DNA of 64,000 bases. Source: a virus (taxonomy: Duplodnaviria > Caudoviricetes). Position 1 is the stretch's first letter, and each line of letters begins with the position of its first letter. The notes under the pieces were generated by a model. It did not search any database. It saw only the letters and a program-made list of their open reading frames with translations, and was not told the origin of the DNA. Location: positions 32,001 to 96,000 of the IMG/VR virus record IMGVR_UViG_3300028888_000069; one strand, written 5' to 3'. Positions 18,711-50,085 of this stretch are shown here, piece by piece. The position numbers and the translations under genes were made by a program.

Positions 18711-18711
18711 T

Positions 18712-18846: not shown

Positions 18847-18849
18847 TTT

Positions 18850-20692: not shown

Positions 20693-20794
20693 CTGGAGAC
20701 TTAAAAAATTTTCAGATGGACATTTGTTCATATTTAAATATAAAACCTCTCCATCACTTTACTAAGGCTCTAAAAATTTAAATTTTTTTCAATT

Positions 20795-20941: not shown

Positions 20942-20945
20942 TAAA

Positions 20946-21206: not shown

Positions 21207-21723
21207 TCATCCTCCTCACTATACATCTGATCCTTCTGGTATTGAATGTATTGATATAGTCAAATATAGGGATTTTTGTATAGGTAATGCCATTAAATAT
21301 TTATGGAGAGCAGGATTAAAAAAAGATTCTTCTATAAGTGATAAAGAAAAAGAAATAGAAGATTTAGAAAAAGCTATTTGGTATATTAATAAAAAAATAG
21401 AAATGCTGAAAAAAGAAAATGCAAGAAATGTTCTATCTGCTTTGTTAGCATATACTGATGAAAAGAATCCTATGAATGTAGATATTGTTTTAGAAACATC
21501 TGAAGATATGGGATTGTCTACATTACAAAAACCTCATGTAATTAAAGTATTCCAAGATCCTAAAGAAGGAATAATGTGGATGCTTTTTGAAGGTGCTGAT
21601 GATTATATAAAAATAGAAGAAGATGATGAAATGGAACAGATAATAAATTATATAAATAATAGTTATCCTATTTCTACAGAAACAAATAAAATAATAAATA
21701 ATTATTATACAACTTTTAACTAA
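21181..21723 (+). CDS. DUF3310 (SaV-like) protein with C-terminal extension
   Basis: VNHPPHY, IECID, FCIGNAIKYLWRAGLK, EDLEKAIWY. Confidence 0.8.
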   Translation: MLKENISVNHPPHYTSDPSGIECIDIVKYRDFCIGNAIKYLWRAGLKKDSSISDKEKEIEDLEKAIWYINKKIEMLKKENARNVLSALLAYTDEKNPMNVDIVLETSEDMGLSTLQKPHVIKVFQDPKEGIMWMLFEGADDYIKIEEDDEMEQIINYINNSYPISTETNKIINNYYTTFN

Positions 21724-21730: not shown

Positions 21731-21775
21731 AAGGGGAAGGTCTCGTCAAACGAGATCTTCCCCTTATTTTTTTTT
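21731..21775. terminator. terminator between the convergent early and late blocks (probably bidirectional)
   Basis: AAGGGGAAGGTCTCGT-CAA-ACGAGATCTTCCCCTT (16-bp stem), T9 run on + and A-rich left flank. Confidence 0.88.
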
Positions 21776-24700
21776 ATACTCTTTCCGCATATTTAATCGT
21801 TTCTCTAAATGATCTTGCAAATGCAAAGTTACTAGATAAGAATTGATTGAAAGATTGTTCTCCTACTAGTGTTTTATAACTAGTCTATAAAAATCTTTTT
21901 GGAACTTTTAATAAAGGAGTAGAAGAATCTTCTAATCTCCAAAATAAATTAAATACTCCATATAAAGAATCGGTTGCCGCTTCAAATGGTCTATAAGCTA
22001 ATTCCATTAAGCCTTGACCTATTATAGAAGAACCTTCTTTCTATTTTTTAAAATCTTTATAAGCAGGAGAAAGTGCATATTTAAATAATAAAGCTAATAA
22101 AGCACCAAGTGCTAAAGTTATTCCAAGTTGATTTAAACTGGATTTAGCTATTTCATCAGCATTAACGTAGTCATATGCTTCTTTCCATCCCTTTTTACCT
22201 AATATTTTTACTGCATTCTTTAATGTATATATAGCCCCTTGAGCAATTGCTGGGACATGTTCCATGACTTTATCTAAGCCTTTAGGATCTACTTCTGTGT
22301 TTTCGTCTTTCATATATTTTTTATTTCCTTTTTCATCGATAATTTCTGTTATTATTTGTCCGTCTTTATCCATATAAAGAAAATTACCGTTTTCATCCTA
22401 GGCCTATTGTTCAGCCATTTTAAATATATTGTACTAACCAGGCTTCATAAACCAGTTGTTATATATACCGTTCATCCATGTAGTAAACATACCAAATGTC
22501 CATCCAGCAGCCAGAAATTCGTATCTAGCTTTAAGAGATTTATCATAAGAACCATATATATTATCAGCTAAAGCTTTTATATTAACTATATCCTAATTAG
22601 AGTATGGAGTAGGAAGGTCAATATTATCGCTGTTTATATCTATTTGTTCATTAATATTAGGGTGGTCTCTATTCCATTTTCTTACTTGTTCTAAAAAAGC
22701 CTATTTCTATTTCTAATACTAAGGATGTTTTTTGTCTCCAGATGCATAAATAGAGAATCTTTTATCTTTTTTCCAGTCATATTTAAGAGTCTCAACCTCT
22801 ATTCCATTTTCGTCTTTAATTTTTTCTATAAACCAAGCAGAATTTTTTGGATCATCCAAATCTATTATTCCATCCTATGCTGCTCTTGCTATAAATAAGG
22901 TCATTCTATTTAAGAAATCAGGAGCACGAAGAGTACCGTAGGCTATATTATCCCAGTTAGATAAACCCTATCTATTTGTTTTTAATCTTTCAGATATACG
23001 AGCTGTATCTGTATTAGAAAGACGATACTTTAGACATAACTTACTTAAAAGAGTGGTTTTAAGGGCATCAAAGGAGCCATTTCTTACTACATAAGTATAT
23101 GCTTTAGAAAGAGTAAGTGCATTTATATCAGTCATATAATGAGAAGCGGTTCTTACAAAATTTTCCATAAGACCATTTTCTATATCTCTAAATGCTGCAA
23201 TGGCATTACCTCCAAGCAACATTAATACAGTAGACTTTTTTACTCCGGCAAATGCTCCCATTAATTTCTAAGAAGTTTCACCAGCTATAGAACCTTGAAA
23301 AACATTTAACTTTATATAGTCTTTTATATAATCTATTTCTCTCTATATCCATTCACTAGACTTCCCACCAGAATCATCTCCCATTATCTATAACTATGTT
23401 AATATAGCACGAGTTCCAACAAGCATTTTATTCATCTTTTCAACATGAATTTTTCTAAACATTCTGTCTACTAAAAGACTCGCTACATTCGTTTCAAAAT
23501 AATCGGAGCCTAGTTCTTTTTCTGAAGCTAAATATTCTTCTCTTTCTTCTTTGGTTAAATCAAAAGGGTCTCTTAATTTTAAACTTTCCATAGATGAATC
23601 TAAATTATAGAAATTTTCCCTCTCATATTTAGATAAAGCATTTATTCCTTCGTCCATCCATCTATTTTTGTCTTTAATAATTTTATATAATCTTCTAGCT
23701 CCTCTTTTCCATTTATCAAATATATTCTACTGTCTTCTAGTAGAACTAGAAGCTCTTTCTAATGGGACCCATAAATAATCTTTATGTCCTTTTATGTAAT
23801 CAGCAATTTTTTGATCATCTACAGACACGCCTTTAAACTGCCAATTATCTTTATATTTATACTTATTAAAATAGTATAAAGCTTTCTTTAAGAACTTTCT
23901 TTCTGCTGCATCTAACGATGTATCGGTGTAAGGATTTTTAAAAAACATTGTTTTCTTTCCTTTAGCATCTCTTTCGTACAGGTTATCAAACAAATGGGTT
24001 TGATTACCGAGAGTCATGTTCTAAAAAGAAGTATAACCTTTTGCTTTTAAAAATTCCATAATGAACCCCTATAAATGATTTGTATGTTCTTTTTCTACAT
24101 CTTCTGCAATAGAGTCTATTGTGATTCTTAAATTATCCACTACTAATCCTATATTTGCATTTGGTATAGTAAAAGAAGTAAACATATTTTTATCAAGGTC
24201 CGTTAATTTTCTTTCATACCCTAAAGTCTCATTTGAATAATATAAATAAGCTTTAGAAATCATATCATATAAATGTGCTACTGTTTTATGTGCTTTATTT
24301 AAGCTGTTTAAATTTTCTGGTATATGCTGAATTATATCAGATATTTTATCATCATTTTCTAATTTCTACATTAGCCCAAATAAAGCGGCTCTTTTTTCTT
24401 CTCTTGTTTTGAGGTCTATTTGTCTAATATTTTCTATTTCTTGCCCATATGTATTCTCTACTGTTACTTTTGAATACATATCATAATCTTCCATTATAAA
24501 ATCATATTCATCAAGAACAGAAGTTAATAAATCTTCATACTAAGCCTTTCCAAAATTATTTTTAATTTGAGCTGTTGGATTATATTGTTTAACTAATTTA
24601 ATAATCTAATTAAATTTAGTTTCTACAAGATCTTGAATATGATAATTTCTACTATTTCTTTGTCTACTTATAATTTTTAAATTACCTAATTTGGTATCTT

Positions 24701-26501
24701 TAATATTATCAAGCGTTGTATTTAATATACATAAAGCTCTTACGGCTTCTACATTTCCATAATCGCCTTTCCATAAAAACTTATTATTATGAACATATCC
24801 TCCTAATATATTATCCCCATAATCATATTGAGGAACCTAATCAAGATTTTTATCAGATAATACTACAACATCAATTATATCATCTTTTTGAAAAACTAAA
24901 ATTCCGTATTGTGCCCATCCGTCATGCATAGTCCATTTATAATTAACACGGGTTACTCCCTTTTCATCCTGTTCCATATCCCCCTCAAAATATTTACTTA
25001 ATTGTTGTTTTATATAAGTTTCGTTTTTTACTCCAAGAGGGGCAAAAGGATTTCTAATTTTATATATTTTTCTTAAAGAATCAACTACTGATGATACATA
25101 TTCATCCTGACCTTCATTCAATTCTACTATATGATCTTTTACTAAATCTATTATTTCTGTATTTCTAGTTTTTTCTGTTTTATCTTTTATTATATGTTCT
25201 TTTCCTTCTATATATACTACATATCTATAATCATCATTATTAGGAAATTCAATTATTTTCAAAGGAACAGTAGAATCACCTGTCTATGGGGCCTTCTATA
25301 TAAGATCTAAAGCAGATTTCATAATTCTGGTACTTTCTACCTATAAAGTAGGAAATATTAAATCCAACATTTTATCAGATTCTATAAACTGTCTAGCAGT
25401 TATACTTTCTACATTTTTAGAGGCCTCTATAAAGTGTTTTGCCTTATTATAACATTTTAAAGAAAGTTCTCCTTTATTTTCTCTATTTCTTTCTAATTCT
25501 ATTAGAGACGGTGCATTTATTTGCCTTATAGAAGAACTATCAAAAGATCCGTCTTTATTCTTGTGAAACTCTATATGTAATGGAATATTATATACTATTG
25601 TATCTTTAACATCTATTCCATTATTCTACAACATTCTAATTAGAAGAGCTACTTCTTGTTTATATTTTAATTGTTTTTCAAAAGACCAATCTGCTCTATT
25701 CTAAGAGGAAACTTTATAATTATAAATTCGTAATTGACCTAAATCTGTTATTACAGCATAATCTATATGAGTAAAGAGTTTTTGGCTTTCATTATCTTTT
25801 AAATTGGATAATAAATTTATATTTCTAACACACATAGAATTAGGAAAAGATCCTTTTATATTTATATAATTATTATCCAATATATCAAATAACATTTCTA
25901 GGGTTTTATATCTTCCTCCTGTTTTTTCTTTTAAAACATCTGGCAAATCATTCATATCTAAAGCTTGTTTAATAAATTTTGCTTTTAATTCTGTTTTATC
26001 TCCTTCTACTCCAATATATTTACTTATAGCCATTCTATGGATAAAAGGAGAAATTGCCACTACTGCTTTTTTTGCTTCTAGATTTTGGTCTACTATTTCT
26101 GTTGCTTTTTCTAACGGAATATCTTTTTTAGTTAATTTATCGATTTCTTTTTCTCTATATTCTTCTAAATTAATTGGCTCCAAAACAGGGACTCCATTTA
26201 TTGTTGCTAGTCCACTATAATCCAAGAAATAAGATAAAGACATTGCATCTCCTAACTCTTCCTAAGAATCTTCATCTATATAAGAATTAGAAGTCATTTT
26301 AGATCTTTTTGATACTTTAGATTTATTAGCCTCCTTTATTTTTTCCAAAGCAGATTTTTTAACCATCTGGGGATCATCATCTAAAGAATATATAAAATCC
26401 GTTCCGTTCCATTTTAAATTCTATAAAGCATTTTTTAATTCGGAAAGAGTATAAGTTCCCTTTTCTAATAAATCTCCTCTATATGTGTATGTACAATCCA
26501 T
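21774..26501 (-). CDS. large virion/ejected protein (~1575 aa, TAG=Gln) with degenerate PD-(D/E)xK-like domain and C-terminal hydrophobic helix
   Basis: Seven track fragments share one frame and break at TAG. Starts MDCTYTY, ends KYAERV-TAA. HIDYAV...IYNYKVS and LGITLALGALLALLF. Confidence 0.8.
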
Positions 26502-26503
26502 AA

Positions 26504-29290
26504 TTAACAATTTTCTTCTAATATTGGTTTTTTATCTTTATCTTTTTTACCCATTTGCTCTTTCATCCAGTTTATTTTTCTTCTGTCCACCTTTAAATTA
26601 TCCAAACTAGTTTCTTCATTATCTCCAAACATTTTTTTATTATTCTACAAATAAGCTGCTATATCGTGATTAAAATTAACTAGTACCTCAAATAAAGACA
26701 TTTTTTGTAAACTTTCTATACTTTCTGTAGTTAAAGAAAGTTCTTTATCTTCTTTCATATTTGGAGTAAAAAGTTTATAGGTTTCTATTAATTCTGGATT
26801 TAAAAAGTCATTAAGATTTCCTCTGTTTTTAAGGACAGATTCAGTAAATCTATCAACAAAAAACTCTTCTAATATAAGTTCCATTGGGTAATTTTGATGC
26901 TATTTTAAAAAGAGTTCTTTTTTGTTCTTATTTCCTTTATCCCATACCGTAGATAATAAAGTATTATATGAATCAGGATTTATTAACTTTAACATACCCA
27001 ATATTAAATGAACATATTCATGGTACATATCAGAAGAAAGAGCTCTAGATACATTAATATATATTCTAGTTCCTTCTCCATTTCCTAAAATATCTTGAGA
27101 AGAGATAAAAGCCTTGGCCCTTTCATCTATTTGCATAGAATCCTCTTTTCCCTAATTATAATTTTCTATATCTTCTTGGGTAATGATTGAAATAGGTATA
27201 TCAATACCTTTTTTCTTTAAAGATTCAGCAGCGGCTTTCCATAACTAAACTATAGGATAAGTTCGGTCTCCTTTTTTATATTCTTCTAATATTTTCTTAT
27301 CTTTTATTGGAATAATATAAGCATTGCCTCCGCTAACTTTATGAATTAAATATTGTCTTAATCCTGCTTTATTTATATCATAAGCTATTCCTAATATAAT
27401 ATTTGCATTCTATTCTTTATGTTCTTCTTTATCATCAAGGCCTGTATAATTCTCATTACCTTCATATTTTACAAGTTTTGGATTAAATAATTGAGATATA
27501 AATAAAGCCACTTTTTTAGGAGAATCTAAATTATATAATACTGTTTCTATTTGATCGTCATTTAAATATTGTCTTAATTCATTTTCTTGACTTCTCATAA
27601 AAATTTTAAATTCATCCATTGTAGCATCGCCAAAAATAAAATTAGCCCATACAGTACCATAAATTTTTTTCTATATATTTCTTGGAACATTATAATCTAT
27701 TACAGATATAATAGTTCCTTCTGGAATATATTTAGTTAGACGAACCCATCTTTCTCCTTCATCATCTGAATAAAAATTGCCATTATCATCCTAATTTCTC
27801 TAATTAAATCTGTATTGAGAATTACTACTTATAACCTAATTTCTATTGTCTATAAATAATTTTGCTTCTAATATCGAATTAAATTTTTGTGTCCACTAAT
27901 TTTCAGTAGCATAATTTTCAAAAACAAAATAAGATCCTTTTATTTCCTATATAAACATATCTTTATAATAAGTATAATTAGGAAGATTTATGACATCATT
28001 AAATCCATACCCATAAGAAGATTGAAGTGTTGGAAAAAAAGATTTAAATACAAGATAATTTCCTTCTGACTTTGTTTTCTTAGCAAAATTCTAATCCCTA
28101 TTTTTTAGAAATTCAAATAAAATTTCCCACCTAGTTCCAATATATTTTTTATTCTAATCACTTATATCTTTACTATCATCAAATTTGGGATTTAAATACC
28201 TAGATTGCTCTGCTTTAAAAAATGTCTAAAATAGATTTATAAAATTATTATCATCATTAATATCTTCATTAAAAAATGCTACAAAATTTTTATAAGAAAA
28301 TTTACCTTTTTCGAAAAATAAATCCTTTACAGTTTTTTCTGACCATCCAAATATCTTCTAAAGATTTTCAATTATTTCTGAATCCTTAGGAAAAGAGTCT
28401 TTTAATAATCCATTATTCAGTATTATATTTACAAAATTTTTCTTAGATATTTTTCCAGTATCATATCTACTATACTAAATAGAATCATTTAATGCACTTA
28501 ATATTGGATCTTTAAATGTAGCAACACTTTTATATCCATCTATTATATGAGAACACAGAGTATCTAAAGCTCTAAATAAAGATATAGTTTCTTCTACCTC
28601 TTCTCCATCAGGTGTTTTATATTTTACAGCCACTACATCTTTATTTTGTCTATATTTACTTCTTCTATTCTAGAAATCTATTAAGAGATTTATTTCATTT
28701 TTTATAGGCCCGGAATAAGAATTTTTTACTGCTTCTAATAATGCAGCATCTTCATTAGTTTCATCACTTCTAATATCATCTAATATTCCCTATTCTTCTA
28801 TTTTAATTCTAGAAGTTAAATAGTTAGCTAAAACCCTTAAATGTTTTATATCAGAATCAATTAATATAATTTCTTCGCCCTTTGAATTATATGTAATACC
28901 ATAAACAGGCTATCCATATTTTGGAGTATATTTACTAACTAACTAAATTTTATATTTAGATAAATCTGTTTTTGGAAATTTTATATTTGGAAATTTTAAT
29001 TTTAATTCCTCCCCATTATAATTGGGAATTGCATAAGCAGTAATATTAGTTATTACTTTCTTTTTATCTACTTTACTTTCTTCAGAGCGGCTTAAATAAG
29101 CGTCTTGTCTAAGTTCAGAACTTTTTTCTCCTATTTTTAATTTACTTTCAATAGCTTCTTTTATTTGAGGCCATTGTTCACTTTGTAAAAGAAAATTCAA
29201 TAGTTCTTCCTAGTTAGAAACTAAGGAATCAGGGGAGATATCAATTTTTATCTCCTCTGTTCCTATGTTTAAATAAATAGTACACTTCAT
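26504..29290 (-). CDS. zincin-like metallopeptidase-domain virion protein (~928 aa, TAG=Gln)
   Basis: Co-framed fragments. Starts MKCTIY, ends EENC-TAA. HEYVH (27008-27022) with downstream LEEFFV. Confidence 0.8.
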
Positions 29291-29296
29291 ATTGTT

Positions 29297-32200
29297 TTAT
29301 ACACAAATCTAACGATAATTAATTGTTCCATCTACCGATAATTTTCTCCATACAGAATTTAATAATGCAATATTATCTTCATTAGCTTCTTTTGTTACAT
29401 TATTTAATGTTTCAGAAATCTGTATAACATAATTTCTATAATCACTTCCATACCCGTATCTATACTAATTCTATCTTCTTGTTTTTAAAATTTCAAAAGA
29501 TTCTCCTGGATTTTCCACCATTAATACAGGTAATGGATCATAATCATTATAAGAACTCCATCTATAATATTCATATCCTCCCATAGGGTCGATAATTTTT
29601 ATCACAGGTTCTTGGTTAGTATGTTCAGTAGAACGTTTTATCGGAGCACTTTCTATTAATATATCCTATAAAGAATAATTTTCCAAATATTTTGTTAATG
29701 ATTTTTCTCTATCTTGTTTATTACTAGGAGTATCCAATTCTCCTAACCATTTATAGTATTTATATAGAAATGATTTATTTACAGACTATCTTCTATCATC
29801 ATTAAGTAAGACATCCTAGAATATAGTAGTTAATCTTTCAGATCCAGCATGGTTAGCATTTACTATAAAATTATATATAATAAATAAATCAGCTATAGAA
29901 GGGCCTTTTTTAGTCAGCCTATAATTAAATAATTTATTTAATCCATCTTTATAATTTTGATATTTATTTCTGTCTTCCTAACTATTTTCTTTTTCCAACA
30001 TGTCTATATTTAATTTATAGAATGGAACTTGCTTATCCTCAACACCTACTAATCCCTGTATAAAAGCATTATCTTTTACAGATATATTTTTATCAGAAGT
30101 ATTAGATATTATAGGTATAGTTCCTCCTTTTAATCCTGGAATTATATATTTTTCAAAAACCATCTTAAAAGTGCACAAATCATGAGCATTTTTTATTACA
30201 AATGGTTTAGAACTTGTCCATTTTTCTTCGAGGAAAGACGGACTTAATACCGTCCAGTTCTTTTCCATATATAACTCTGGTTCCTATTCCTGTAGAAAAT
30301 CTGATATTAACATTTTATCAATAATTCCCTAAAACTTATATTCATAATCAAATGGAGTGCGAGGGAAATATTTTCTCAATTCTTTAGAATATCTCTATAA
30401 TAATCTACTTTTAATAGGTATTTCATTAATAACAAAAACAGCATATCCAGCAACTTTAAACATTGAGCTAAAATGTGGAGTATGATTGAATATATAAAAA
30501 GGATTTAAAGTTATTTTTAAAGGATTATAAAACTATTCAGTCTTCTTTCTATAATTTTCTGAAATAAGCCAATCTAATGTTGTGAAATTTCCATCTATAA
30601 TATCTGAAAAATAGTTTTCAAATTCTTCTACCTCCATTCCATTTCCATATAAATCCTAAATAACTGCTTCATCCCATTCCCCTTCTTTATTTTTTAATTT
30701 AGGTTCAATTTTTGTTATTAAATTCTTTAAAGAATTTTGCCAAGAAACTAAATCTTTATTTACTGCTTTTACACCTTGATTTATTCCTAAGCCTCTTCCT
30801 AAAGCTGAAAATTCATCCGCCCCATTAAGAACCTTCTCAAAGGTATCCAAATCATTTAAATATTGTGTAATAATAGGTATAGAGAAACCTTTTTCATTTC
30901 TAATTAGATTATCTAATTCCTCATTAAATCTTGCCTTTATTGTTGGATGTACTCCCCTAAGACTTGGCACTTTATTCTTTTCTGGATCAATTTTGTTATT
31001 TAAATATTTCCTAATATATGTTATTATATAATTAGCACTTATATTCTAATTGTTTATTATATTAGGATCAGTTATTTTATCTATTAAAGATATTAAAGGA
31101 GAGAACATAAAAGCAGCAATATCCTTTACATCAAATCCAAGGGTCATTAAATATAAATGGCATTTTGCTAATTTAGTTCCAGCATTAATTGCACCTAATA
31201 TTAACTCTTTAGCATTATCGGTTGCAGCAGAGATAACCTAAGAAATTACTCCATCAACAGGAATATCAGGTTTTAAATATTCTCCTTTAACTGTTTTTAA
31301 TAATCTATCCCTTAATTCTTCATTTAAGTCAAAATCAGGTAAAAATTGTATATTGGATTCTTTTTCTATATTACCTGACCATCTTCCTTCTATTCCTTTT
31401 AAGTTCAAATTAAATTTAACTTGATTAAAATCAACTCCCTATTCTAAAGCCTCTAAAACTGCATATCTCCAAATATACTGACCTTTTTGTCCATTAGCTG
31501 ATATACCTGTTACCGCTTTTCCTACCATATTGATCCTCTATAATATAGCCATCATAGCAGGATTAAAAGGACTTAATTTCTCTAATTCCTTTGCTTTTGG
31601 TGCTTTTTTCAAAGTCCCTCTTAATTCCTCTATAGCTACTGGAGAATAAGAAGGAATTAAATTTCCTATTTTTGAACTTATCTTTTGAATACCAGTAGAT
31701 ATAAAATTCTTTAATATCTTATCTCTAATATTAAGAGATTGATCATAATTATCATGTTTTTGTATATCTCCTAATATTGCTTTAGCATCTTCTTCTGGAA
31801 TACTCTAAGAAAATTTTATATTTGTTTTCTTTGATTTGTATAAATCTTTTAGTATTCTTCCTATAACTTTTAATCTACTTATTCTATCATTAATTTCATT
31901 AGAAGTGGTAAGGCTCTTATAACCAATACCTTCAGTTACGATAAAACTATCTTCGTCTTTAATATTTTCATCATTAGTAAATCCAACATTTTTTGCTAAA
32001 GGAAGATATTCATCACTAGCATTTAATGTATCAATAGAAGTATAATCAAATAAATTACTCCATCCTATAAATATACCATTGTCATCAAATTCAAATCCCA
32101 TCATATAAGACTTATCAATATCATAGTCAGATCCCTATAAAAAGGCCTACCAGTGAGAAACCGCACACTAGTTAGTACTTGAACCATTAAATCCTATACA

Positions 32201-35200
32201 CTCCATCTTCATAAAAGATTGAAGGTTTTGTGCTGGAATACGAGAAGATGTAAAAAATTTAGATTTCATAAAAGAAGTATGACGTTTCTTAGATATTTCT
32301 TTCATGTATAATTTATTCCAATAACTTAATTTAGAAGGCTCGTGGCCTCTTTTTAATTTATTTACTTCATTTACTAAATTATTTAATACATCTGCATCAT
32401 CAATTTTTAAGGTAGCTTTAATAACTCTTTTTACATTATATATTGATGGATATAAAATTTTAGTTTTTATTTCTTTTACTAAATCATCACTTATTTCGTT
32501 CCCAAAAATCTTTCTTACTTCCTCATCAGTAAAAGGCTTTCCAGCATTAAATCTTATATACTCTTCTTTTCTTTTTCCAAAGTCTATTGTAAATACAAAC
32601 TATTTAATATTCTTTAAATAATTAAATAATTCCTAATTTCCCTCCTTTTCTGCCTATTTTATTAAATTATCAAGTATTTTAACTACAAGAGGACAGTTTT
32701 CTCTTTTAAGATTATAAGCAGGCTAAATTAAAGCATATTTATCCGATTTAAAAATAGAATTTATTAAATTAGATATTTCTTTCCTAATTAAATATTGTTC
32801 GTTAGTAATTCTTTCTGGAAGTAAACATCTTGAAAGATTATCTCTATCAATGCAAAATTTAGTAAAAATAGAAGATCCATTTGAAGGAATTATATTATAT
32901 TTATTTAAGAATATAATCTATTCACATATAGTTCCATCACTTGCAAAATAAAAAGTTCTCTTTTTAGATATTACTTTTCCTTCTTTATCTAAGAAATTCT
33001 TCCCATCATAAGTAACACCTTCAGCAACAATTCCTCTTCCTACTTCATATAATGGAATATTATTTCTATCCATTACATATATTCTATGTTTTATATTTCC
33101 AATCTAAGTTGGGTTCCCATTTTCGTCTTTTATATCTTGCCTATAAAGACTAGATTGTTTCCATACTTTCTTTTTTTGGCTATATAAATCTGAATTGGAA
33201 CTTGGAGATAAAGATATATAAACATCCTTTTTCCCATTTAAACTAAGTAATTGAAAATCAAAATCATATTTTTCTGCGTCTATTTTATTATCAATATAAT
33301 TATCAAAATAATCAGGATTAGATTCTATATCGTACATACTATCATAGGTAGATAAACCAAACTAAGAAGCATATACATTGGACATTATAACTTCTGCTGA
33401 TTTATATTTCATATCAGTTACCTTATATAAATTGCCATTTCTATCCTAATATTGTCCCTGATCTAATAATCTCAAAAATTCTGGAATAATTACCTTTTGA
33501 TAATGTGCTATAGATATTTGAGCAGCCTATGAATTCTTAGCTTGTTTTCCAAGCTAATAAAGTTCAATATAAGGCCATGTATCAAATATATTTCTATTGA
33601 CAATTTTCCCGGAAGGGGTTTCATAAGAAAAATGTATTCTAGCTGGAGCCAAATCCCTAGGTTTATTTCTTACTATAGAAGTTTCTAATATTGAAATTTC
33701 TGCATTAGGAGATAGTTCTATTTTATTCCCGTTTTCATCATATATATCAGCTTTCTTTAAAATTAAATCTTTAACAAAATCTTCAGTATTCATTTTAAAT
33801 TCATAATACTGAGGTATTGTTTTAAGATTTACTTCTACCTATAGGTTATTATTTACAAATGGCATTCCTCCCTCTATATATTCATGTTTGAATTTTATTC
33901 TTACTCTACTTAACGGATCATAATTCCTTAATATTTCTTGTTTTTTAGAAGGTGTCCATAATTTGCTGTCTTTCCAAGATATTATATTATCATCTGGAGC
34001 TACTTCTTTTAAATAGGAGTCTACTAAAGTTTTATTATATAAAATCTAATCCGTTAAATAAGGAGGCCTTTTTTGAGGATTAAGTCTAAAATAATTTCTT
34101 GCTTCTTTTAAAACATCTGGATATTGTAACTTTTTTCCATTTATTTCATATATCTAGTATATTCCATAAGAAGGTACCATTACCTAACCTATTCCAGGAT
34201 ATTTTCTTTTTATAGCTTTACTATTTAATATAGAAGCAACAGTAGAAAGAATTTGACCATATACGTTATGATCACTAAATGGAATTTTAAAAGTGTCGTT
34301 AAGGTGGTTTTCGTTTAGATTAAAGTTCTTTTTTATATTTCTCAATATACTTTCTAATAATCCTGCTCTTCCACCATTTTCACTAAAATTATTTATGATA
34401 GTATTTCCAACAACTCTGTATAAATCAGCAAAATCCCCTTTTTCTATTGCTCCTTTTAGAGCATCTAATTCTACCTAAGCCGCTTTTAATGTTTGTTCAC
34501 CAATGGCCTCATATAATTCCTATACTTCTTCGTGATAATATCCACCGGAATCTAAAGCAGATATAACTTGAGACATTTCTGTTACTTCCGCTTCATCTGC
34601 TTCATGGTCAGAATCCTATTGAGGACCGTATTTCTAAGTGCTTGCTTTAGTAGTTTTTAATTCCTTATTAGGGTCTAATAAATCTCTAAAAGAATTAACA
34701 TTAGAATATCCATTTTTCATCGCAGATTTATAAACAATACAATCAATTAATTTATACTTTAAAGGCTGATAATAATAAGTTTGATTTACTGGAGGTCTTT
34801 TGCCATTTTCTTTCTAATAACGAGCATTTTCTTCTGTAGGCACACAAACATTATTCATAAAATTGACAACTATATAATTAGAACTTTCTGAATATTCTAA
34901 ATTTCCATCCACTAAAGATTCACAGTACATTCCTCCCATTGCTTGCCATAGCCTATAAAGAGAATTAATAGTATCAAGACCTTCTAACTTTTTAGTAGAT
35001 CTTATATGTCCCTTTTCATTACTAAAATAATGATATACTGTTCTTATTTCATTAAAATTGCCATCACCAGAAGCATCTACTTCTTTTTCTTTTGTATAAT
35101 AAGTACCATCTTCATCTCTTCCAAAATCTATAATTTCATAATGTTTATCATCAAGCATGTAGAATAGCTGTTTTCCCATTAATATATTCTTTCCAAAAGT

Positions 35201-38200: not shown

Positions 38201-39526
38201 ACGTGTATTTCCTACCCTAACTGGTAATTTTCCGTTTATTAATAATATTCTAAATATATTATATAAGGCTTCTGGTTGGTTTCCATTAGCCAAATCATAA
38301 AATGCGTTTTTTAATGCTATTTCCCAAGTGCTATTTCCAAGTATGTTAACAGTTGATCTTAACCTTGAAAGAGCAGCAACATAATCTTTTAATTTTAAGT
38401 ATCCCCCATTTTCGCGAGGGATACTTTCTATTATTCTTTTTGAAAATTTTCCAGTCTATTTTAAAGCATCAGAAATTGTGTTAGTCCAATCTCCTTTTAA
38501 AGCATTTTTTACTTTTAATTGATATTTATATTTAGTAACGGTTTCTCCTCTTCTATTTTGTTCTTTGACTATAGGAGAAGAATATTTTTTATTTCCTTGT
38601 ATAAACCCTATATCACTTTTTATAATATCGTCAAAATGCTCTAACATTAAATAAGCATTTATTGCTTCCAATAAATTTGAATCAGACGTTTTTCCGGTTA
38701 TTGCATTTAAAAAATCTTCATTTAATTTCTCAAAGTAGCCATTCTCATTTTCTTCTTTAAGTTCACTTATATATTGTGCAAATAAAGACATTAATTTAGG
38801 AAAATGAAGAGAGTTATATGTGTAATTAACATCATATTTACTTAAAGCAAGTGGTTTTATTTTCCCTGTTTCTGAATCAAAATGGTTTTTCTTTAGAAAA
38901 TCCTGTTTAGTTATAAGAAAGTCATGGATAATCCTGGTAAGTTTATTTATATAATAACATAATCCTTCGTTTAAATCTCTTTCATTTCTAATAAGCCTAG
39001 AAGATTCTATATTAGGTCCTCTTTGTACTACACATAAATCAAAAATTTTATGAAAAGCATCATCCTTGAAAAAGGAAATTAATACATCATTATTTCCAAA
39101 ATAGTCTTCATAATCATCCTTTATTTCTCTTTCTTCTTCGTCTTCTTCTTGAGTTAAATTAACTTCCTTTTTTTCTTCTTTTTGAACAGGTTTTATATTT
39201 TCTGTTTTAGAATCACTAAATTCTCTTTCTATATATTTCTTTACTTTTTCTTTTTCATCGTCTAAAATATTTATTTTATCTACGCTACTTATAAGAGATT
39301 CTTTTAAATTATTTATAGAAGTATCAAATTCTTCCTAATCATACATTGTTTCTCCTGAATCATTAGGAATATTTTCTAATGGAATGCCCATCTTCTATTT
39401 TAAAAATTTTTTTAATTCTCCATATTTTAAATAAGATCTGTCTTTTAAAAATTTTGTTAATTGTCTTTTTATTAAAACATCATCCTTCTAAAATAAACTT
39501 TTAACTTCACAAGAATTACCTAACAT
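29297..39526 (-). CDS. virion-packaged two-barrel RNA polymerase of crAss-like phages (~3409 aa, TAG=Gln)
   Basis: Eleven co-framed fragments. Catalytic loop GSDYDIDK (DYDID 32114-32128) preceded by SRIPAQ. Also DAHDG and ATDNAK. Starts MLGNSC, ends RQICV-TAA. Confidence 0.9.
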
Positions 39527-39537
39527 TTTTATTATAT

Positions 39538-42500
39538 TTAGCAGTTTAATAGTTTATTAACTAATTTATCTAAAAATTCTTCTTTATATTTTTCTTCTTC
39601 CCCTTCATTGAGTTTATCAGAAAGGTTTTGTAAAAGTGATTTTATTATATTTTCTTTTCCTTCCTTAATAGATTCTATTAAATATTCTTTTTTGGATAAT
39701 ATTTTTCCATTCCTTTCTTGATCACTTAGGACATCTAAAGCTTTTAATCCCTCATCTATAAGATCTCCTGTTTCTTCCTCATCAAAACCTTCATTATCAA
39801 AAAGATAACTTTTAATAGCATTATCTAAACCCTCTTCTGTAAGTTCATTATTAGTTGGGTCTACAGTTGCTCCTTTTATTTCAACTTCTCCTCTATCATT
39901 TATTAATACTTTAAAATCTCCCCCACTATTAGTTAAAAAGTGTATTTCTTCTCCTCTTAATTCAAAATGTCCATTCCCTTTTTCTTTGATAGAAGAGACT
40001 TCTTTTAAAACAGTCCATTTATAATTATCTTTTCCTTCTTTATTTATATTTATAGGAATATTTCCTATAAGAGAGTTGTGGTTTTCAAGGGGTTTTGTAG
40101 AAATATCATTTATTATACTTCTTATATTATCACCAACAAGATTCTTGTATATATCAAAAGGTCCCCAACCCACTTCTGAAGCCTCTTTTAAAGTTTCTTC
40201 TATGGTTTCTTCATCTACTATTTCTAACTTAAATAGTTCATTATTAAATAAGAAATGTGTTATTTCTTTTTTCTTTTCCTCTTCTTTTACTTCAATTCTA
40301 GAAGTGTCTTCCTAATAATCATCAAAAGATATTTCTATAACAGAAGATCTAGGAACTTTATCGGTCAAGTAATATTGTATCTAAGTTGCTGATTTCTAAT
40401 ATCCTAAACCATTTCGTGTCTTCTTAGATAATAAAGTGTCTACTAACATTCCTTGCCAAAATAAAGATTTTCTCATATGAGGAGGTCTTTTTCCTTTCAC
40501 AAAGTCGTTAACAGTTCCACCTATTGAAACAGAACCATGTAAGGCTAGATTTATCATATTTATAAATCTTCTGTCATTAGCTTCTGTGCCATCATCACTC
40601 AAATAAATTCCAGGCTAAGAATCATATTCTCCATCAGTAGAGTAAGCAGATAAATCATATAAAGGTCTTAATCTAGGTTTTCCTTCTAATACTTCTAGTA
40701 TAGAACCAAAAGACATTGTCATTTCATTATCTTTTCCCTTATTTAATATAATTCTGTCTTCTATTATATCGTCATTTTCTTTGAATTTAGTTGCATTAAT
40801 AGCAGTAGCTACTTTAACCAATAATAAAGGAAGTACTTTTAATCGATCAACTCCTTCTAAAGATATTGAAACGTCTTTATCTAAAGTGAAAGTTAAAGTT
40901 CCGCCCTTTCTTTCTTTAGCATTATTTAATAGATTTATCCAATTTTTTTCATCAGTAGCATAATCTATTAAATCCTATTCTTTTATAGAATCTATAACTT
41001 CTTTTGGGAAAACTTTATAAATTAACTAATTAAATAGCTCTTCTACCATTCCTAGGTTTTGATTAGCTACTATAGGATTTATATAAGCATATCCTTCTTC
41101 ATATTCTTTATGCCCATAAGTTTTAGTAATTGAATCTCTTATATATACACCATGTTTAGATTCATAACCAAGTCTAAACTGAGGATTTTTAGAAGAACCA
41201 TTAAAGTCTATTACAGATTTTACATCTTCTAAATCTTCTTTAGTCAGTTCAAAATTTTTATAATTTAAACTTGAATATGTTTCAGATTCTCTTACTTCTT
41301 TTGAAAATTTATTTAAATCTATTGATTCTAGTTCTTTTAACCATGTTTCATAACTTTGTCCCTCTTCATGTTTTAAATCCCATATAAAATGAAGTTTAGA
41401 TTCTATTTCAGCTCTTCTTTGAGCTTCTCTTAATATCTGTTCTTCATTATCAGATTTCAATAATCTTCCAAAGTATTCTAATAATTCTTTTTTATATGCC
41501 CTTAAATTTGATCTAAAATTCCAAAAAGCAGTAAACATTCTTATAGATTGAGGAAGAGCTTCAAAAGGGAATGTATAAGTATCACCATGTTTTGTTTCAA
41601 AAGCATAATTATATCCTTTATTATATAAAGATTCAAAACTAACACCTGCATGATCTAATGTTATTTTAGATACAAATGGATGCCAAGGAGATGTCTCATC
41701 TGTATAAGCATCAAGTAATTCATCTTCTTTTAAAGTTCTTACACTAGAAACTAAAATGAAAGGTTTGCCCCTTCCTTCAGACTCTTCTCCTGTTCTTTCT
41801 TTTACCCATGTATATACAGGACTTGTTACATAATTTTCTGTTCTGGCATTATAAGCAGAAACAAAATCAGATGATTCTGGAGTAGAATTAACTTCTCTTA
41901 ATCTAACTCTAGTTCTTTTATATTTTCCTTTAGAATCTTTTTTAACAGTTCCGTCCTTATTTAATAATTTAGCATCCGCTAATTGAGTTTTTTCTAAGAA
42001 ATTAGGTTTATTAATTCTTTTGCTTCCAACTCTCCATAGCATTGCTAAATTTTCCCTGTATTCATCTGCAAATCTTCCTTTGTCTATATCGTCTATTTTC
42101 TTTTTAAGTTTCCTTATTTCTTCTTCAATCTTTTTTACTCTTTCTTCAGATTCTTCACCTTCTTTTTCTTTCTCTAATTTCTCTATTTTTTGTTCAGCTT
42201 GTTTTGATAAAATATCAAAAGAATTAGTAGCTTTACTATCAGGTAAAACAGATAGGGTAATAGTATATACAGCACCATTATTTAATTTTAATTTCATCTA
42301 GACATCATTTATAGATTTTACTTCCCAATAAGAATCTTTTAATCCCTATTCTTGAGTAACAAAATGATGTATACTAGGATCTAAATCCTCATGTACTGCA
42401 TAATACTCTGCATTTTTCAAAATATCTATTATATCATCTTCGCCTATAGCAAAGTTTTCTTTTACTACATTGTTATAATCGTCTAAAAATCTCCTATACT

Positions 42501-45500
42501 GTACTATAAATTGTATAGGATCTTTTTCCCACACATTAGATAAAATAAGAGATTTAAATTCCCAGAATAATCTAGCATAGTCTTTTTTAGTAGAATTATC
42601 AGAAATTTCTTTCTTTCCTTCTACCATCATTATTGCTAGGTCTCTTTTATTTGGGCCGTCGGTAAGTCTCCAAACAGCACTTCCATCCGGAAGTTCCTCT
42701 CTTTCAGTACCTAAGAAATTAAAATTAGAATAAGAATGTATAGGATAAGAATAATTGAAATCTTCTAAATCTTTTGTTTCAGCTTCCCTAATATCTTTAT
42801 TATCCTATGGGACTAAACCTGTTCCTTCTAATTCTTTTGGATCAACGGGAACATCTATTGGCTTATCTTCACTTATAGGAACCTCTTTTTCTTTCTTTTT
42901 TTCTTCTTCTATTTTTATTGAATCTTCACTATCAACATCAGTTAAATTTAAAGAATTCAACCATTCTAATTCAGATTTCTAAAATGCCTCAATAGCTTCT
43001 GTATTTAATATTACAGAATCAGTGCTATTATCTTCTTGTTTTGGATTTCCTATTACAGAAGTAAGTTTGTTATTTTTTATAATAGTTCCTTTTCTACTTC
43101 TTGTTATAATTGTATAAAGATTCCTCATGAAATTCAGAGTCTAGAAAGGACTAGTAAAATCCCTTTTCCATCCTATGTCTACTACTAAATAATCGCATTC
43201 TTTTCCCTGAACCTGTTCTATAGACAAGGCTTCTTTTACCTTTCCAGCTGCCTTTAGTTTTTTAAATAAATCAGAAGATTCATCACCAACAAATAATATA
43301 TCTCCTTCTAATGAATCTACATCCATATCCTTTGAAGAATCGATAATCATATCTCCTGTAAATTCTTTTCCATTTTTATAGTACTAAAGTCTAAATTCTT
43401 TTAATTTCTGTATAGTTTGTTTATTATTAGTTTCTGTTTCTTCTGATCCTTCTGATGCCCTTAATATATCCATCATCTGTGATAATTTAGTCTAATTATA
43501 ATATTTCCACTTATTTGCGTCCCTTAAAGAAAATCCTAATTTAGGAACTCTAACCATAAAAGTAGATTCTCTAGTTAAACTAAATCCTGGATCTGTATTC
43601 TAATTCTAATTTTCATCTCCAGAAAATATTAATTCTACATCATTAAAAGCTGCCCATTTGCTTAATATTTGAAGTTCTGCATTAGAAAATAATGTGATTT
43701 CATCAATAATTAATCTTTTAGGGGCATCGGGTGTTGTAGATACATTTATTTTTGATATATCAACAGAACGAATTTCTTTATACCCAGAAGGTTCATTTAT
43801 TTTTAATTTTTCTTTATATTTATCATACTGTTCTACTAATATTTTTTTAAGTAGTTCTTCCTTATCAAATTCTTTTACTTTTATTCCCTTTTTAGTAGCA
43901 ATTTCAGATAGATTACCAATCTAAGAATCAGTAGGCCCACTTATCCAATCTCCTTCTTCCATAACAGCCTTATCTACTACAGAAGTTTTTCCAGAACCTC
44001 CTATTCCTGGAATAAATATAGCATTTGATAATAATACTGTATCCTTATTATCGAAATATTCCGAAAAATATGTTAATGCTTTATTAAAGAGGGGCTTATT
44101 AGCTTGATGAGCCATTAATAATCTAATAGCATGTTTTTGAAAAGATAAAGGAGCTAAATTTTTATTTTCTTCTATAAAAGATTTATATTTAGAATAAAAA
44201 GAATCTGGACTTAAAGATATTACTGATAATAAATAGAAAAATTTATCATATTCAGTAAAGTTTTCTAAAGAAATATTTGCATCTAAAAGAGACGATTTCT
44301 ATGTAGCTATTTTAGCTTTATCAAAATTAGAAAGAATTAATTCCAATAGAGTAGTAAGAGTTAGTTCTTTATTTTTTAAAGCTTTTCTTGCATTATTATA
44401 TAATAATTTTTCTATCTGATAAACAGCAGTTTTTGGATTAGAATCGTCTATTTCATCAATTCCATCTAATAAATTAACAGAACCTAAAGTTAAACTAGAT
44501 TTTAAAGAACGTAAAAATTTTAATTTAGTATTTTCAAAATTTTGCTCAAATTCTTTATACATTTTAACTTTATTAATTCTATTATTTCTAGATTTTTTTA
44601 GCCATCCATTTATTTCTTGATAGTAGTTTTCTAGACTCTATACTAATACATTACCAGTATTAGTATTTATTTCTAATAATTCTTCTGCCTTTTCTCCCAA
44701 CATATCTTTATGGGTTCTTATCCATTCATTCAATGCCTTATTGGCAGGTAATTCATGTAGGAAGTTTGTGTCTAGAGATGCCTATTTAATTACAGAACGA
44801 GCTATCTATAATACTTTTAAAGTATTCTCTAAAGCCTTTATTTGTTCATCATTTAATATATAATCTTCTACAGATTCTAATGTTTCAAAATCTTTATATA
44901 TGTCTCGCAATACATTTTCTATATCAGCAAAATTAACACCAATAATAGGAGCAATAGCTTTTAAAACTTTTAGTGTAGGATTACTATCAAAGTTTAATTT
45001 TTCTTTCAGTCTTTTTACTGCCTTATAAAAAGCATTCTAATTAATAGAAGTAATAATAGAATCTATAAATCTATCAGCTATTTTATTAAGGTCCTAACTT
45101 TCTTCTTCCTATAACTAGGATGAATAATGTAATACTTTTTCTGGATTTATATATGCAACTCCTTCTGAAGTAATTATATCGTTGTATTCTGTACTTAATT
45201 CAGAAAAAACAGCGGCTTTTTCATCAAGGGTTGTTACGGTTTCCCCTTCATGAGAATCGCTAACTAATGTTATAGCATAATCAGAAGGATTATTAATAAG
45301 ATATTGAAGTCTTATAAAATCATATAGATTTTTAACAAAAGGAGTATCTTCTTCAATAAATATTCCAGATTTACTTTTTTCTCCTGTTCCTATTAAATCA
45401 TTTAATTCTCCTACAAAATCTTCAAAAGAAATAAAAGAATCAAATTTTTTCTTATCATTAAAATTAATAAAATCTATTCCACCTTTTGTTATAAATCGAG

Positions 45501-48500
45501 CTAAAGATTTAAAAGTATAGTATCCAGAACCTGCGTTATAAGGAGCGTCTTTATCAAAATCTGCCATTTTACTATCTCCTTCTTCATCTAATCCAAAATA
45601 ATCATCAAGTTCATTCTAAACATAAGTTGAAATAATGGAATGTACTCTATCCTTTAATTCACCTACATTAGATAAATCGTCTTTTAAATCTTTAAGTATT
45701 TCTTCTATTTGATTAAAGATAGATGTTAGTTCTTGTGGAAAATTATTAGAAGATTTTTTTAATACTGAAGCAATTATATCCTTTTTTCTCCAATTTAAGA
45801 TTTGAATAATTCTTCTAAAAGTGTTAGAATCAATTATAGAATTTTCATCCAACATCTTGTTAACCTATTCAAGTATAATTCTATCTTTCTTTATTTTAAT
45901 AAGGCTTTTTCTTATTTTTTTTCTTTTATTGTATTCCTCTTCAGTTTCCCCTTCTTTCTAAGAATCTCTAAATTCAAAATCTTCGTCAATACCTTGTTTT
46001 TCCCAAATTGGAACTTCAATATCTTTTCCTTCATTAGTTACTGTTTCTCCTTCTATGTAAGATACAACATTTCCTGGATGAACATAAGAAGTAATACCTC
46101 TAGAATTATTTCCAAATTCCAATATATAGTGGCCTAATTTTGGAACTTTACTTCCCCTTGTAGTTATTTCGCCGTCTGCCATTGTTCCAGAACTTACTGC
46201 ATTTTGATAAGCATCAGACCACATAGCTGCTCTCCATTTTCCAGAAGATTCATCAAAAACTTGTACACTGGCAGAATCATTTGTAGTGTATACTTTTATA
46301 TGTTTACCTTTTTCTATCAGCAATCTAGTTGCCATATTAAAGTCATATCCCTATTTTCCTTCTGAGAAAAAGACATTATCACTCCATCCATGAAGCCCAG
46401 CATCGATTCCTCCTGTATTATTATGGTGAGATTTAATTCTTCGAGTCATCCCATCTTCAGTAATAATATATTCAGAACCCTATTCAGTATAAAATTTTTT
46501 AGAAACTTTTGCTCCCTTTGGGCTAGTTATATCATTTAAATTTTCTCCATTAAATGTATTAGGAGATGTTCCAGGTCTAGTAAGAACTGCTTTTTCATAA
46601 CTACTTCCATCACCGACTTCCATTGTATTTCCAGGAATCCCTTCCCAAAGATCTTGTAAAACTTTTGGAACTTCTACAGGGGTTGTTGTAGTTTTTGTTT
46701 TAAGTTTCCTAGTATCTACTTTTATAAATCCTAACTGCCCAAACCAATTATTTAATCCAACTACTCCTCCAGGAGATAACTCTCCCCATGTAGATAATTT
46801 ATCCCCTTTAGGGATTACTAAAGCAGCTGCCTAAAATAATCTCTTTTTTTGTTCATCAGTTAATGGAGATACTTCTGTATCGTTATCTTTTGTAGTTTTA
46901 AAATGGATAGACCAATATCCATCTTCAAGGTCTTTTACTATTTCAAATTTTCTGTCTGGGTCTTCTCTTAATTGTAAATAGAAAGCTTTATTAGTTTTTG
47001 AAGGATCTGATTTCCAAGGCTTATCAAAAGTTTCTCCTTTTATTATATTAATGCCCGATAAAAGAATATTTATTTCATCATCAGTAAATTCTTCTACTTG
47101 CTAATCCCACAACTACTTAACTTTTGGCAAATTAGGGAATAATTCTTCCATTTTTTCTAAATGTTTTCCCCAAACTTCTACATCTCCATCATTTAAAGTT
47201 TCTAATTCTTTTTTAGATCTAGTTTGAACCTCTTTATATAATTCAAAAGCCTAATCTAATTCAATTTGTCTTTTTTCTTTTTTATATTTGTCGTATAAGG
47301 AATCAACTATTCCTTTAAATTTATCGATTAATTCATAATAATTAACCCCAAATCTTTGCCTAGTAAAAGCATTTTTTGTCATAGTTAAAAATGCTCCACT
47401 TATTTCTGGATTTATAGCAAAAGCTGTTTTCTCTAAATAATAAAGAGATCCAGAAGAGAAAAATTCTTCCTTTCTTTTATTTAATTCTTCTTTCTTTGCT
47501 TCTAATTTTTCTTTTTGCTCGACATACTAAGGATCATCATCTCTCTTTTCTTTATCCTTCGTCTGTTCTTGTAAATCCTATAAAGCGGTTTCATTTGCAA
47601 CTATTGTATCAGTTAAATCCTCAAATTCTTTAAAATAGCCTGCTATATAAGAAGCATCTTTAATAGAACCTCTTTCTACATCCTACTCTAATTTATCATT
47701 CAAAGCGGCCATTTTATAGTCAGATAAAACCATTCTATCAAATAATTCATCATCAGTTAAATTTAATTGATTTCCTTTTATAATGTTATCCATCTATAAT
47801 ATAGATGATTTCATCATATCATAAACAAATTCATTTTGAGATTTATTATTTTGATCAGCTGTAATAAAAGTTTTTGTTTCGTTACCTTCTGGATCAACAC
47901 TAGTGGTAGTATTTACAGATAAATTAGTATCACCTAATTGTCCTTTATCACGCAATTTACCTAATTCTTCTAATATTTCATTGGTTTTTCCCTACCTTAT
48001 TGCATTCATTAATTCTCTATGGTATTGTACATCTACAGTCGATTTTGGATTTTTTATAGCATCTACTCCATAAAATAATCCTCCACCAATAGCTCCACCA
48101 AAGAAAGACATTAAATATCTGTCTTTGGCGTTTTCCCAAGCACCTACATCTTTTTGAGATACTAAACCAAATTGTCCTGCCAATTCATATAAAGATTTAA
48201 CAGTATCAGAAACCAATTCTTCTGATACTTCTTCTAAACCTTCTCCCAAAGCTTTTCCAAAAAATCCTGCAGAATGTTCTTTTAAACTTTGTAAATAATT
48301 ATCCTTAAAGGAACTAACTGCTTTTTTAGCAGAATTCTTTCCTTTCTATACTAAATTTAGTAAATTCTTTTTACTTGCTTCTTCTTTAATAGTAGAAATC
48401 CCGGCCTTTTGAGCCATTCTTTCCATTATTGGTGTAACATCTTTTTCAACAGATTCTTTTAAGCTTTTTCTAAAAGCTTTTTGTGCAGCCAATTCTGGAG

Positions 48501-50085
48501 TATCATCAAAAAACATTTCTCCTAAACCTGTTTTATCTACAAAATACATTCCCAAAGTACTTCCTAATGCAACAGCAGCTGCTTCCATTTTAGTTGCACC
48601 ATGTTCTAACATAGATTCATATACATCTGTATTAGATACTAAAGCCATATAAGCAAGAGATAAATTTGCTCCTGTTTCATAACTTTTAGAAATAGCTTTT
48701 TCAGCGGCTGGCATTACTTTTTCTAAAGCCGCTGCTCCAACAGCAGTATTTTTCCACTTGCCAGATGCCATTAAATCTGCTACACCTTTACTGGAATCTG
48801 CTCCTGTATATTTTATAGCGGCTGTTATAGAATCCATCTTTCCTTCAAAGGCCTCTCCAAGCTTTCCTTCTTTCGCCTATTGTATTATTCTATTAGCCTA
48901 TTTTTCATATTCAGCCATTGCTTTACTTTCAGCAGAAGCAAGAGATCCTTTTATGCCTTTTCCTGTATTAGTTACCCAATTAGCTATTTGCTTTTGCTGT
49001 CCCCACTATAAAGCAACATCAGAAACCAACCCAGCAAAGTTTTCAAAAGAAAAAGCATTCTATCTTCCTTTTTCAGAAGTAGACGTAGAAAGTCTTTTAC
49101 CAAATGCCGCAAGTGTATTAACAAACTGTGAATCTTCTTCCTATCCCATTAAAGAGGTAAATACACCATCTAGCATTGGCAATGTTTTAGCCAATTCTTT
49201 AGCTATCATTAATCCGCTATAAGCAGCAGAAATCTCTGCTCCTCCTAATACCATAGGAGCTAATGCCACTAAATTCTTTGCTATAATTCCAGCAGTACTT
49301 TTTTCAATATCATCAGAATCAAAAAAGTCGTATTTATTTATAGCAGAATCTTCTTTAGTAAGAACATCAAAAGCACTTAATACTTCTTTTCCTACTATTG
49401 ACCTTCCTCCTAAAGTTTCATAATAATATTCTCCCTAAGGATTTAATTTCTTTTCTCCTTTAAGGTGTTTAACAGTCTATCCAGTTATAGGATCTGTTTC
49501 TTCTTCATCTTTGTCATAAGTGGCCAATACCAAAGAATCAGCAAAAGGATTTAATACGTTCGTTATATATCTAATAGGGTTGGTAAATAAAGAATAGTCT
49601 TCTGGAGAATGTTCTATAAATTTACCTTCTTTATAATCCCATATTTTTTGTCTTTGTGCTAACTCAGCTTCGGTTTTAGTTCTAGGCCCTTCCATATTAA
49701 ACCCAGAAATACCTAAAGAAGTATGATTTGGGTTGTCTGTTTCTATTAAATCTAAACCAGGATTTTTGACACGAGAAGTTGGTTTCTGGAAAGTATCCCA
49801 GAAACCATATTCATAATTGTCAACTTTCTAAGAAGAAGAAAAATCAGAAAATTTATATGCTTGTTGTTGATAAAAAGCATCAAATTTATCTGGAGAAAAG
49901 TTACCTTCATTGTCTTTAAAAATATCTTGATTTTTGATATATTCAGAATTTTTATAATAATCAGCATCTTTTAACTGAGTATTATCCAAAGTCATTCCTA
50001 AAACTTCTTTAAAATCCTGGCTTTCAAAAGTTGGATTATTTATTCCAGCAACTATCCAATCGTTTTCTTTTAATTGTTTATTCAT
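39538..50085 (-). CDS. giant virion/ejected protein (~3515 aa, TAG=Gln) with N-terminal membrane segments and an SF1 helicase domain
   Basis: Fifteen co-framed fragments. GEGLEEVSEE and FFGGAIGGGLF near the N-terminus. GIGGSGKT, LIIDE, GDEN(TAG), QGKE and YTIITR helicase motifs. Ends LLNC-TAA. Confidence 0.85.

Follow-up and report, generated by a model that had tools for sequence, protein, structure and literature searches.

Paired terminal cysteines at the junctions of giant cargo proteins in crAss-like phages: a candidate disulfide-linked chain

The cryo-electron microscopy structure of the pre-ejectosome of cyanopodophage A4 shows a disulfide bond in the virion between Cys1715 of gp27 and Cys5 of gp26 (PNAS 2025, PMC12002296). 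These are the sole cysteines of the two proteins (1,717 and 1,114 residues, respectively), whose genes are adjacent in the A-4L genome. The bond was reported as one detail that stabilises a folded assembly of pentameric form, and neither as part of a chain nor as a general rule (PMC12002296). Here, we describe paired terminal cysteines at the junctions between four giant proteins of a large-genome crAss-like phage. The proteins are encoded on the minus strand of a 64,000-nucleotide stretch of DNA, hereafter the window, which spans positions 32,001 to 96,000 of the IMG/VR virus record IMGVR_UViG_3300028888_000069 (Duplodnaviria; Caudoviricetes). In gene order they are a first link that we call A, a probable homologue of virion RNA polymerases (RNAP), a middle protein with an HExxH (zincin-like) motif, and a last protein.

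Other phages with ejected polymerases provide further context. In N4-like phages, cysteine is strongly suppressed in the ejected proteins, an avoidance attributed to the periplasm that they must cross (PMC11445570). Against these essentially cysteine-free ejection proteins, the cysteines that crassviruses retain at junctions stand out. The crystal structure of the phage phi14:2 polymerase gp66 shows an auto-inhibited form for which no means of activation has been explained, and a neighbouring gene encodes a zincin-like protease; the paper describing this polymerase does not mention terminal cysteines. The virion of crAss001 contains many inter-subunit disulfides in the tail and portal vertex (PMC10172136). 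A prior sequence-only reading of the window, which proposed that the four proteins are linked head to tail, knew of no description of such an arrangement. Our literature searches likewise found no description of terminal cysteine pairs for Crassvirales, although a disulfide with the same signature is on record in A4 (PMC12002296).

With TAG read as a residue, the four proteins together comprise 9,427 residues and 29 cysteines (Table 1). All six inner termini, meaning those that face another of the four proteins, carry a cysteine 1–6 residues from the end, compared with neither of the two outer termini. A lacks cysteine at its N-terminus, as do the last protein and the product of the upstream cargo gene at their C-termini. 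The sequence-only reading had described this arrangement in proteins where cysteine is otherwise uncommon, and it was borne out when open reading frames (ORFs) and termini were re-derived. Cysteine accounts for 0.31% of residues in the four proteins, compared with about 2% for the replication genes, which lie on the opposite strand. With terminal windows fixed at 9 residues and cysteine expected at the frequency found inside each protein, the probability of all six inner termini carrying cysteine is ~1.1e-11, and we reject chance as an explanation. The two upstream cargo proteins fall outside the cysteine-linked chain and mark its outer boundary.

Single-protein searches for relatives, by tblastn against phages and by a pattern scan of IMG/VR, recovered almost nothing. 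Alignment-driven scans of IMG/VR yielded 114 loci, from which complete blocks were then taken for 15 further lineages. Relatives were compared at 15–45% identity and formed 16 clusters at 60% identity. Across the 16 complete blocks (window included), 98 of 98 inner termini at 49 true junctions have a cysteine within 9 residues of the end, at position 3–8 on the N-terminal side and 1–9 residues from the end on the C-terminal side. None was present at the 32 outer termini or the 16 C-termini of upstream genes. Two distant GenBank relatives (24–35% identity), one using the standard code and one TAG-recoded, have the same pattern at every junction. With other lineages added, the rule is kept at all of the ~67 junctions examined in some 20 lineages of the clade, which have standard, TAG-recoded, or TGA-recoded genetic codes. 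Retention in distant homologues, and at inner ends only, is what the proposal of a chain had depended on.

Several relatives' proteins have no cysteines other than the terminal ones, such as a 2,882-residue RNAP with two cysteines, both terminal. In alignments of the terminal 220 residues, cysteine is alone among the positions close to the end in being invariant or nearly so. The flanking sequence is conserved within each junction class and particular to it, which could make the pairing specific. Among other ORFs of the virion module on the same strand, terminal cysteines were found in 6 of 346 at each end (counts that are not de-duplicated).

The same rule is kept at nine junctions in the classical Crassvirales crAss001, DAC15, phi14:2, crAss002, cr4_1, and cr50_1. 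In crAss001, gp47 has one cysteine in 2,341 residues, at position 2339; gp50 (2,412 residues) has Cys5, Cys2404, and one internal cysteine; and the single cysteine of gp49 is at position 5. DAC15 is similar, with Cys2220 of 2,222 residues in gp078, Cys5 and a cysteine as last residue in gp076, and Cys4 in gp077. The phi14:2 proteins g067-g066-g065 total 5,398 residues, and each of their four cysteines sits at an inner terminus. The pattern is genuine, far from random, and kept across the order.

In crAss002, gp33 has Met-Ser-Cys at annotated residues 33–35 (L120:8163-8261). Because this placement fits the N-terminal rule of the other members, the gene has probably been annotated with a start 32 codons upstream of the true one.

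Gene fission and fusion events bear on which cysteines are partners. In the lineage of MT835492, A is split at a position matching window residue ~1870, where the window's protein has no cysteine, and the new ends carry a cysteine pair. The middle protein of another relative (G012) is split into 333 and 549 residues, again with a new pair. Conversely, cr50_1 gp059 is a fusion of an A-like protein with RNAP and crAss002 gp33 is a fusion of RNAP with a gp49-like protein, and neither has a cysteine in the inferred fusion region. The supposition that fissions gain the pair and fusions lose it thus held for both of two independent fissions and for two of three fusions, the third being cr4_1, which we return to below. 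Systems of 2, 3, 4, and 5 proteins have 2, 4, 6, and 8 terminal cysteines. A linear chain of n proteins linked in pairs would have this same number, 2 x (n - 1).

These counts also constrain other bonding patterns. In principle, their parity is compatible with N-to-C cyclisation of each protein plus one link between A and the last protein, and the abundance of inter-subunit disulfides in the crAss001 tail allows for links to the portal, capsid interior, or tail. Under such topologies two bonds would be lost at each fission or fusion, and cysteines that were not partners would have to re-pair. Two-protein systems (cr50_1, crAss002) permit only the junction pair, and the upstream cargo proteins have no cysteines to offer. 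We consider bonding of this kind unlikely. Since each event adds or removes the two junction cysteines, pairing across the junction is the simplest arrangement, with one bond changed per event. Overall, comparison of the sequences supports well a pairwise, junction-specific logic of the terminal cysteines.

Not every interruption of a gene in this locus creates a cysteine pair. In many relatives, interruptions split the RNAP gene within conserved motifs, and the resulting pseudo-ends lack the pair. One insert matches a group I intron (Rfam RF00028, 74 bits), and ends interrupted by introns need no tether because the pieces are joined at the RNA level. The interruption often falls exactly within the catalytic motif G-S-D-Y/D-I-D-K (at the slash), and the RNAP of the window is uninterrupted. 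The inserts are 0.3–3 kb long, some with cysteine-rich endonuclease-like ORFs (L002:16966-18003; L153:3522-3755; blocks G007-G011, G015). Separately, one locus (L096; IMG/VR 3300045988_037023, ~12940-12970) has A split into 992 and 1,984 residues without a proper cysteine pair. Its second piece has no N-terminal cysteine and near-identical relatives have A intact, and the split is probably a frameshift or assembly error rather than a true fission.

We also considered whether the signal resides in the nucleotides or the annotation rather than the proteins. Flanking cysteine codons at the window's junctions are only 11–29 nucleotides apart, and they might serve in translational bypass, as the matched take-off and landing codons of T4 gene 60 do, act as a coupling signal, or reflect mis-called starts. 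However, the first-link gene in both crAss001 and DAC15 is on the opposite strand from its partner gene and kilobases away. Bypass, coupling, and junction-nucleotide explanations are therefore excluded, and the signal must lie at the protein level. Furthermore, an ATG lies 2–7 codons ahead of the N-terminal cysteine at all junctions examined and the residues after the cysteine are conserved as protein, which places the cysteines inside the proteins. The rule also spans three genetic codes. True starts downstream of the cysteines, which the sequence-only reading had named as fatal to its proposal, were not found. In our view the opposite-strand partners refute an artefact of this type, and its probability is negligible; bypass in particular was rejected on the basis of these strands and the ATG before every N-terminal cysteine.

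A protein-level role for the cysteines need not involve a disulfide. The junction pair could join two termini by way of a shared metal ion with other ligands, or as part of a tight non-covalent interface, whether strand-strand or helix-cleft. Consistent with this, a conserved Glu precedes the C-terminal cysteine of the middle protein by 2–3 residues, a conserved Tyr follows the N-terminal cysteine of the last protein at a distance of 2 residues, and the cytoplasm of the host is reducing. A metal site is difficult to reconcile with a single cysteine on either side of the junction and with the lack of a conserved His or further Cys close to it. Similarly, a Zn(Cys)4 node resembling a zinc hook was rejected because there is one cysteine per terminus and totals of 2, 4, 6, and 8 do not fit such a node. 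In the one solved case, that of A4, the sequence signature seen here corresponds by analogy to a real head-to-tail disulfide. Pairing without a disulfide is the least improbable of the alternatives, though still unlikely.

Lastly, the cysteines might not tether anything. They could act as a redox switch of the polymerase after entry, as sites of S-acylation for membrane attachment, or as a signal for recognition or cleavage by the HExxH protease. The auto-inhibited state of phi14:2 gp66, with its unexplained activation and adjacent zincin-like protease gene, lends these roles some appeal. Nonetheless, none explains why the outer termini are cysteine-free, why the cysteines occur as facing pairs, or why they track fission and fusion, and we regard non-tether roles as very unlikely. 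Two related candidates were rejected outright: lipoprotein-type acylation, as there is no signal peptide or lipobox, and a split intein or trans-splicing, as there are no Pfam intein domains and cysteines 1–9 residues from the ends leave no room for intein fragments.

We favor, with moderate confidence, the explanation that each cysteine pair forms an inter-protein disulfide tethering the cargo head to tail. The four proteins would be the virion-packaged, ejected RNAP cargo of a large-genome, TAG-recoded crAss-like phage. Selection would have purged nearly all cysteines, leaving one near each terminus that faces a chain neighbor. In the assembled virion, each junction pair would form a disulfide, as in A4 gp27-gp26, such that A, RNAP, the HExxH protein, and the last protein become one covalent chain in that order. 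More speculatively, the link may keep the cargo stoichiometric and let it leave as one threadable string, the near-terminal position of the cysteines may keep the joint almost linear, and reduction in the cytoplasm may release or activate the chain. The head-to-tail chain in gene order put forward by the sequence-only reading is supported in part, by cysteine conservation, fissions and fusions, and the count of 2 x (n - 1); for the bond itself we infer the chemistry. Virion packaging and ejection of the window's proteins we infer because of the crAss001 and phi14:2 proteomics.

Several considerations weigh against this explanation. The lineages share ancestry, and hence the 76 junctions are not 76 independent events, and fission and fusion events are few. 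In the fused form of cr4_1 (gp26), a single cysteine is kept near the inferred fusion point. The RNAP of the window has 17 internal cysteines and is less depleted of cysteine than the phi14:2 RNAP. Although crAss001 gp47, gp49, and gp50 were found in the virion by mass spectrometry, they were not resolved in the map, and the paper does not discuss their cysteines (PMC10172136). The A4 precedent is only an analogy, because A4 gp27 and gp26 have no detectable homology to crass proteins (best phmmer E-value of 0.011 against a database of 19 proteins). The hosts are gut anaerobes with a reducing cytoplasm, a setting that makes the place and time of any oxidation a difficulty for this explanation.

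The identities of the four proteins are supported to different extents, with Pfam and PHROGs being nearly silent on all of them. The RNAP matched crAss001 gp50, annotated as a putative RNA polymerase, in colinear segments (blastp E-value of 1e-7). Its core profile matched residues ~1496-1655 of phi14:2 gp66, in the bridge-helix/trigger-loop region (hhalign E-value of 5e-5, probability 67%). A D-Y-D-I-D motif near residue 2470, of the DxDxD catalytic type, is invariant in relatives. Searches of the RNAP and alignment profiles against PDB sequences, using phmmer and hidden Markov models, gave no relevant match. Taken together, these similarities argue with moderate strength that the window's RNAP is a homologue of the phi14:2 gp66 and crAss001 gp50 polymerases.

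In 22 of 23 lineages the middle protein retains HExxH together with a Glu further downstream; it had no match in Pfam or PHROGs. Six columns are invariant among 17 full-length homologues, including Cys3, Cys928, E758 of HExxH, and E809. Its AlphaFold model has low confidence (mean predicted local distance difference test score of 61), and Foldseek found no significant match to it in the PDB. In this low-confidence model, Cys3 starts an N-terminal beta-hairpin and Cys928 is on a disordered tail past the C-terminal helix, an arrangement that is weakly suggestive of exposed, pairable ends. No match to crAss001 gp49 was found with hhalign, and the last protein matched gp49 with an E-value of only 0.037. 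For this reason, we do not claim that the third junction arose by fission of a gp49-like ancestor. Homology between A and gp47, and between the last protein and gp49, is at most hinted at by sequence comparison.

Protein A has a conserved N-D-W/F/Y motif at its N-terminus and weak, sub-threshold matches to AAA_30 and UvrD_C_2 at residues 2119-2333. The sequence-only reading had cast A as a membrane-anchoring leader, which we could not support: no strongly hydrophobic segment was found in A at the threshold that picks residues 1455-1479 of the last protein. The latter is the only strongly hydrophobic, transmembrane-like segment among the four proteins. In the last protein, Cys3 is followed directly by a conserved x-Tyr.

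The minus-strand block at 21774-56151 contains only short ORFs under translation table 11 and six long genes once TAG is read as a residue. A total of 152 in-frame TAGs interrupt the four otherwise open frames of the giant genes, making TAG a sense codon in this block. Relative to background, Gln is enriched 2.4–4.3x at TAG sites when standard-code relatives are compared. In-frame TAG occurs throughout the minus-strand virion and cargo genes of the window, and only one of the listed plus-strand ORFs at 16515-21723 is altered by reading TAG as a residue. The source is a 125-kb record that is 69% complete, and relatives' genomes are 150–280 kb. Neither the window nor this incomplete record yielded a suppressor tRNA for TAG. 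ARAGORN predicted a transfer-messenger RNA-like gene beside a tRNA-Leu(TAA) outside the window (G000:C1:1805-2226; L155:1165-1586). For the last protein, the likely start is the ATG at 26501; initiation at the TTG at 26510 would lengthen it by 3 residues. In relatives (L038-L117), the gene directly preceding A has a conserved N-terminal basic-Gln-x-Gly-Gly motif, and the second upstream gene of the window (53815-56151) opens with the same motif.

Table 1. Cargo genes and junction cysteine codons of the window (window coordinates; TAG read as a residue).
Feature	Position	Strand	Description
Gene A, first link	39538..50085	-	3,515 residues, 2 Cys
Virion RNA polymerase (RNAP) homologue	29297..39526	-	3,409 residues, 19 Cys
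HExxH (zincin-like) middle protein	26504..29290	-	928 residues, 3 Cys
Last protein, last link	21774..26501	-	1,575 residues, 5 Cys
Two upstream cargo genes	50085-53813 and 53815-56151	-	1,242 and 778 residues, entirely Cys-free
Gene A C-terminal Cys	codon 39541-39543	-	last residue
RNAP Cys6	codon 39509-39511	-	
RNAP Cys3408	codon 29303-29305	-	penultimate residue
HExxH protein Cys3	codon 29282-29284	-	
HExxH protein Cys928	codon 26507-26509	-	last residue
Last protein Cys3	codon 26493-26495	-	

Crassviruses, which in the human gut are more abundant than any other phages, pack and deliver ~0.7–1 MDa of protein, and the polymerase with which infection begins is part of this load. The only virion structure is that of crAss001, in which the cargo is not resolved (PMC10172136), and a 2026 paper still calls for a structure of the cargo (PMC13434306). 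If true, a conserved covalent tether would explain the stoichiometry and order of ejection, the freedom with which genes fuse and split, and the purging of cysteine everywhere except at junctions. A bolder view is that the cargo of Crassvirales, and perhaps of podophages more widely, as A4 hints, is one covalent thread in which near-terminal disulfides replace peptide bonds, allowing genes to split or fuse freely. This thread would be pulled through the tail one link after another in a fixed order, and reduction in the cytoplasm would uncouple its links and perhaps activate the auto-inhibited polymerase. We consider this extended scenario possible but doubtful. Were it to hold, fused "polyproteins" would need no cleavage, contrary to the current assumption. 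From a practical standpoint, the terminal-cysteine rule helps annotators to find the true ends of giant genes such as crAss002 gp33.

Among described systems close to that of the window are the cargo blocks of its cultured relatives. The sets g067-g066-g065 of phi14:2, where g066 is the solved virion RNA polymerase, and gp47-gp50-gp49 of crAss001 likewise consist, in this order, of a large protein, an RNAP, and a further protein, which bears a zincin in the cultured phages and an HExxH motif in the window, and they keep the same terminal-cysteine rule. The window's clade differs from cultured Crassvirales in having four, and sometimes five, links rather than three, in its much larger proteins, and in the recoding of TAG. 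The disulfides of the crAss001 tail and portal vertex resemble those proposed here in bonding different virion proteins to each other, but they involve ring, hub, and auxiliary proteins at internal positions rather than the termini of cargo. N4-like phages (Schitoviridae: virion RNA polymerase gp50/gp71, with gp51/gp72 and gp52/gp73) also eject a giant polymerase together with helper proteins. Their proteins have essentially no cysteine, termini included, whereas Crassvirales keep exactly those at the junctions. Phage A4 shares with the window adjacent genes for large ejection proteins and the same terminal-cysteine signature that is present at every junction of the window. It differs in having one link only, with no polymerase involved, and in belonging to a different family (Saffermanviridae) with a different host. 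As far as we found, a single link of this kind was already known from A4, and what is new here is a candidate multi-link chain that includes the virion RNAP and extends across Crassvirales.

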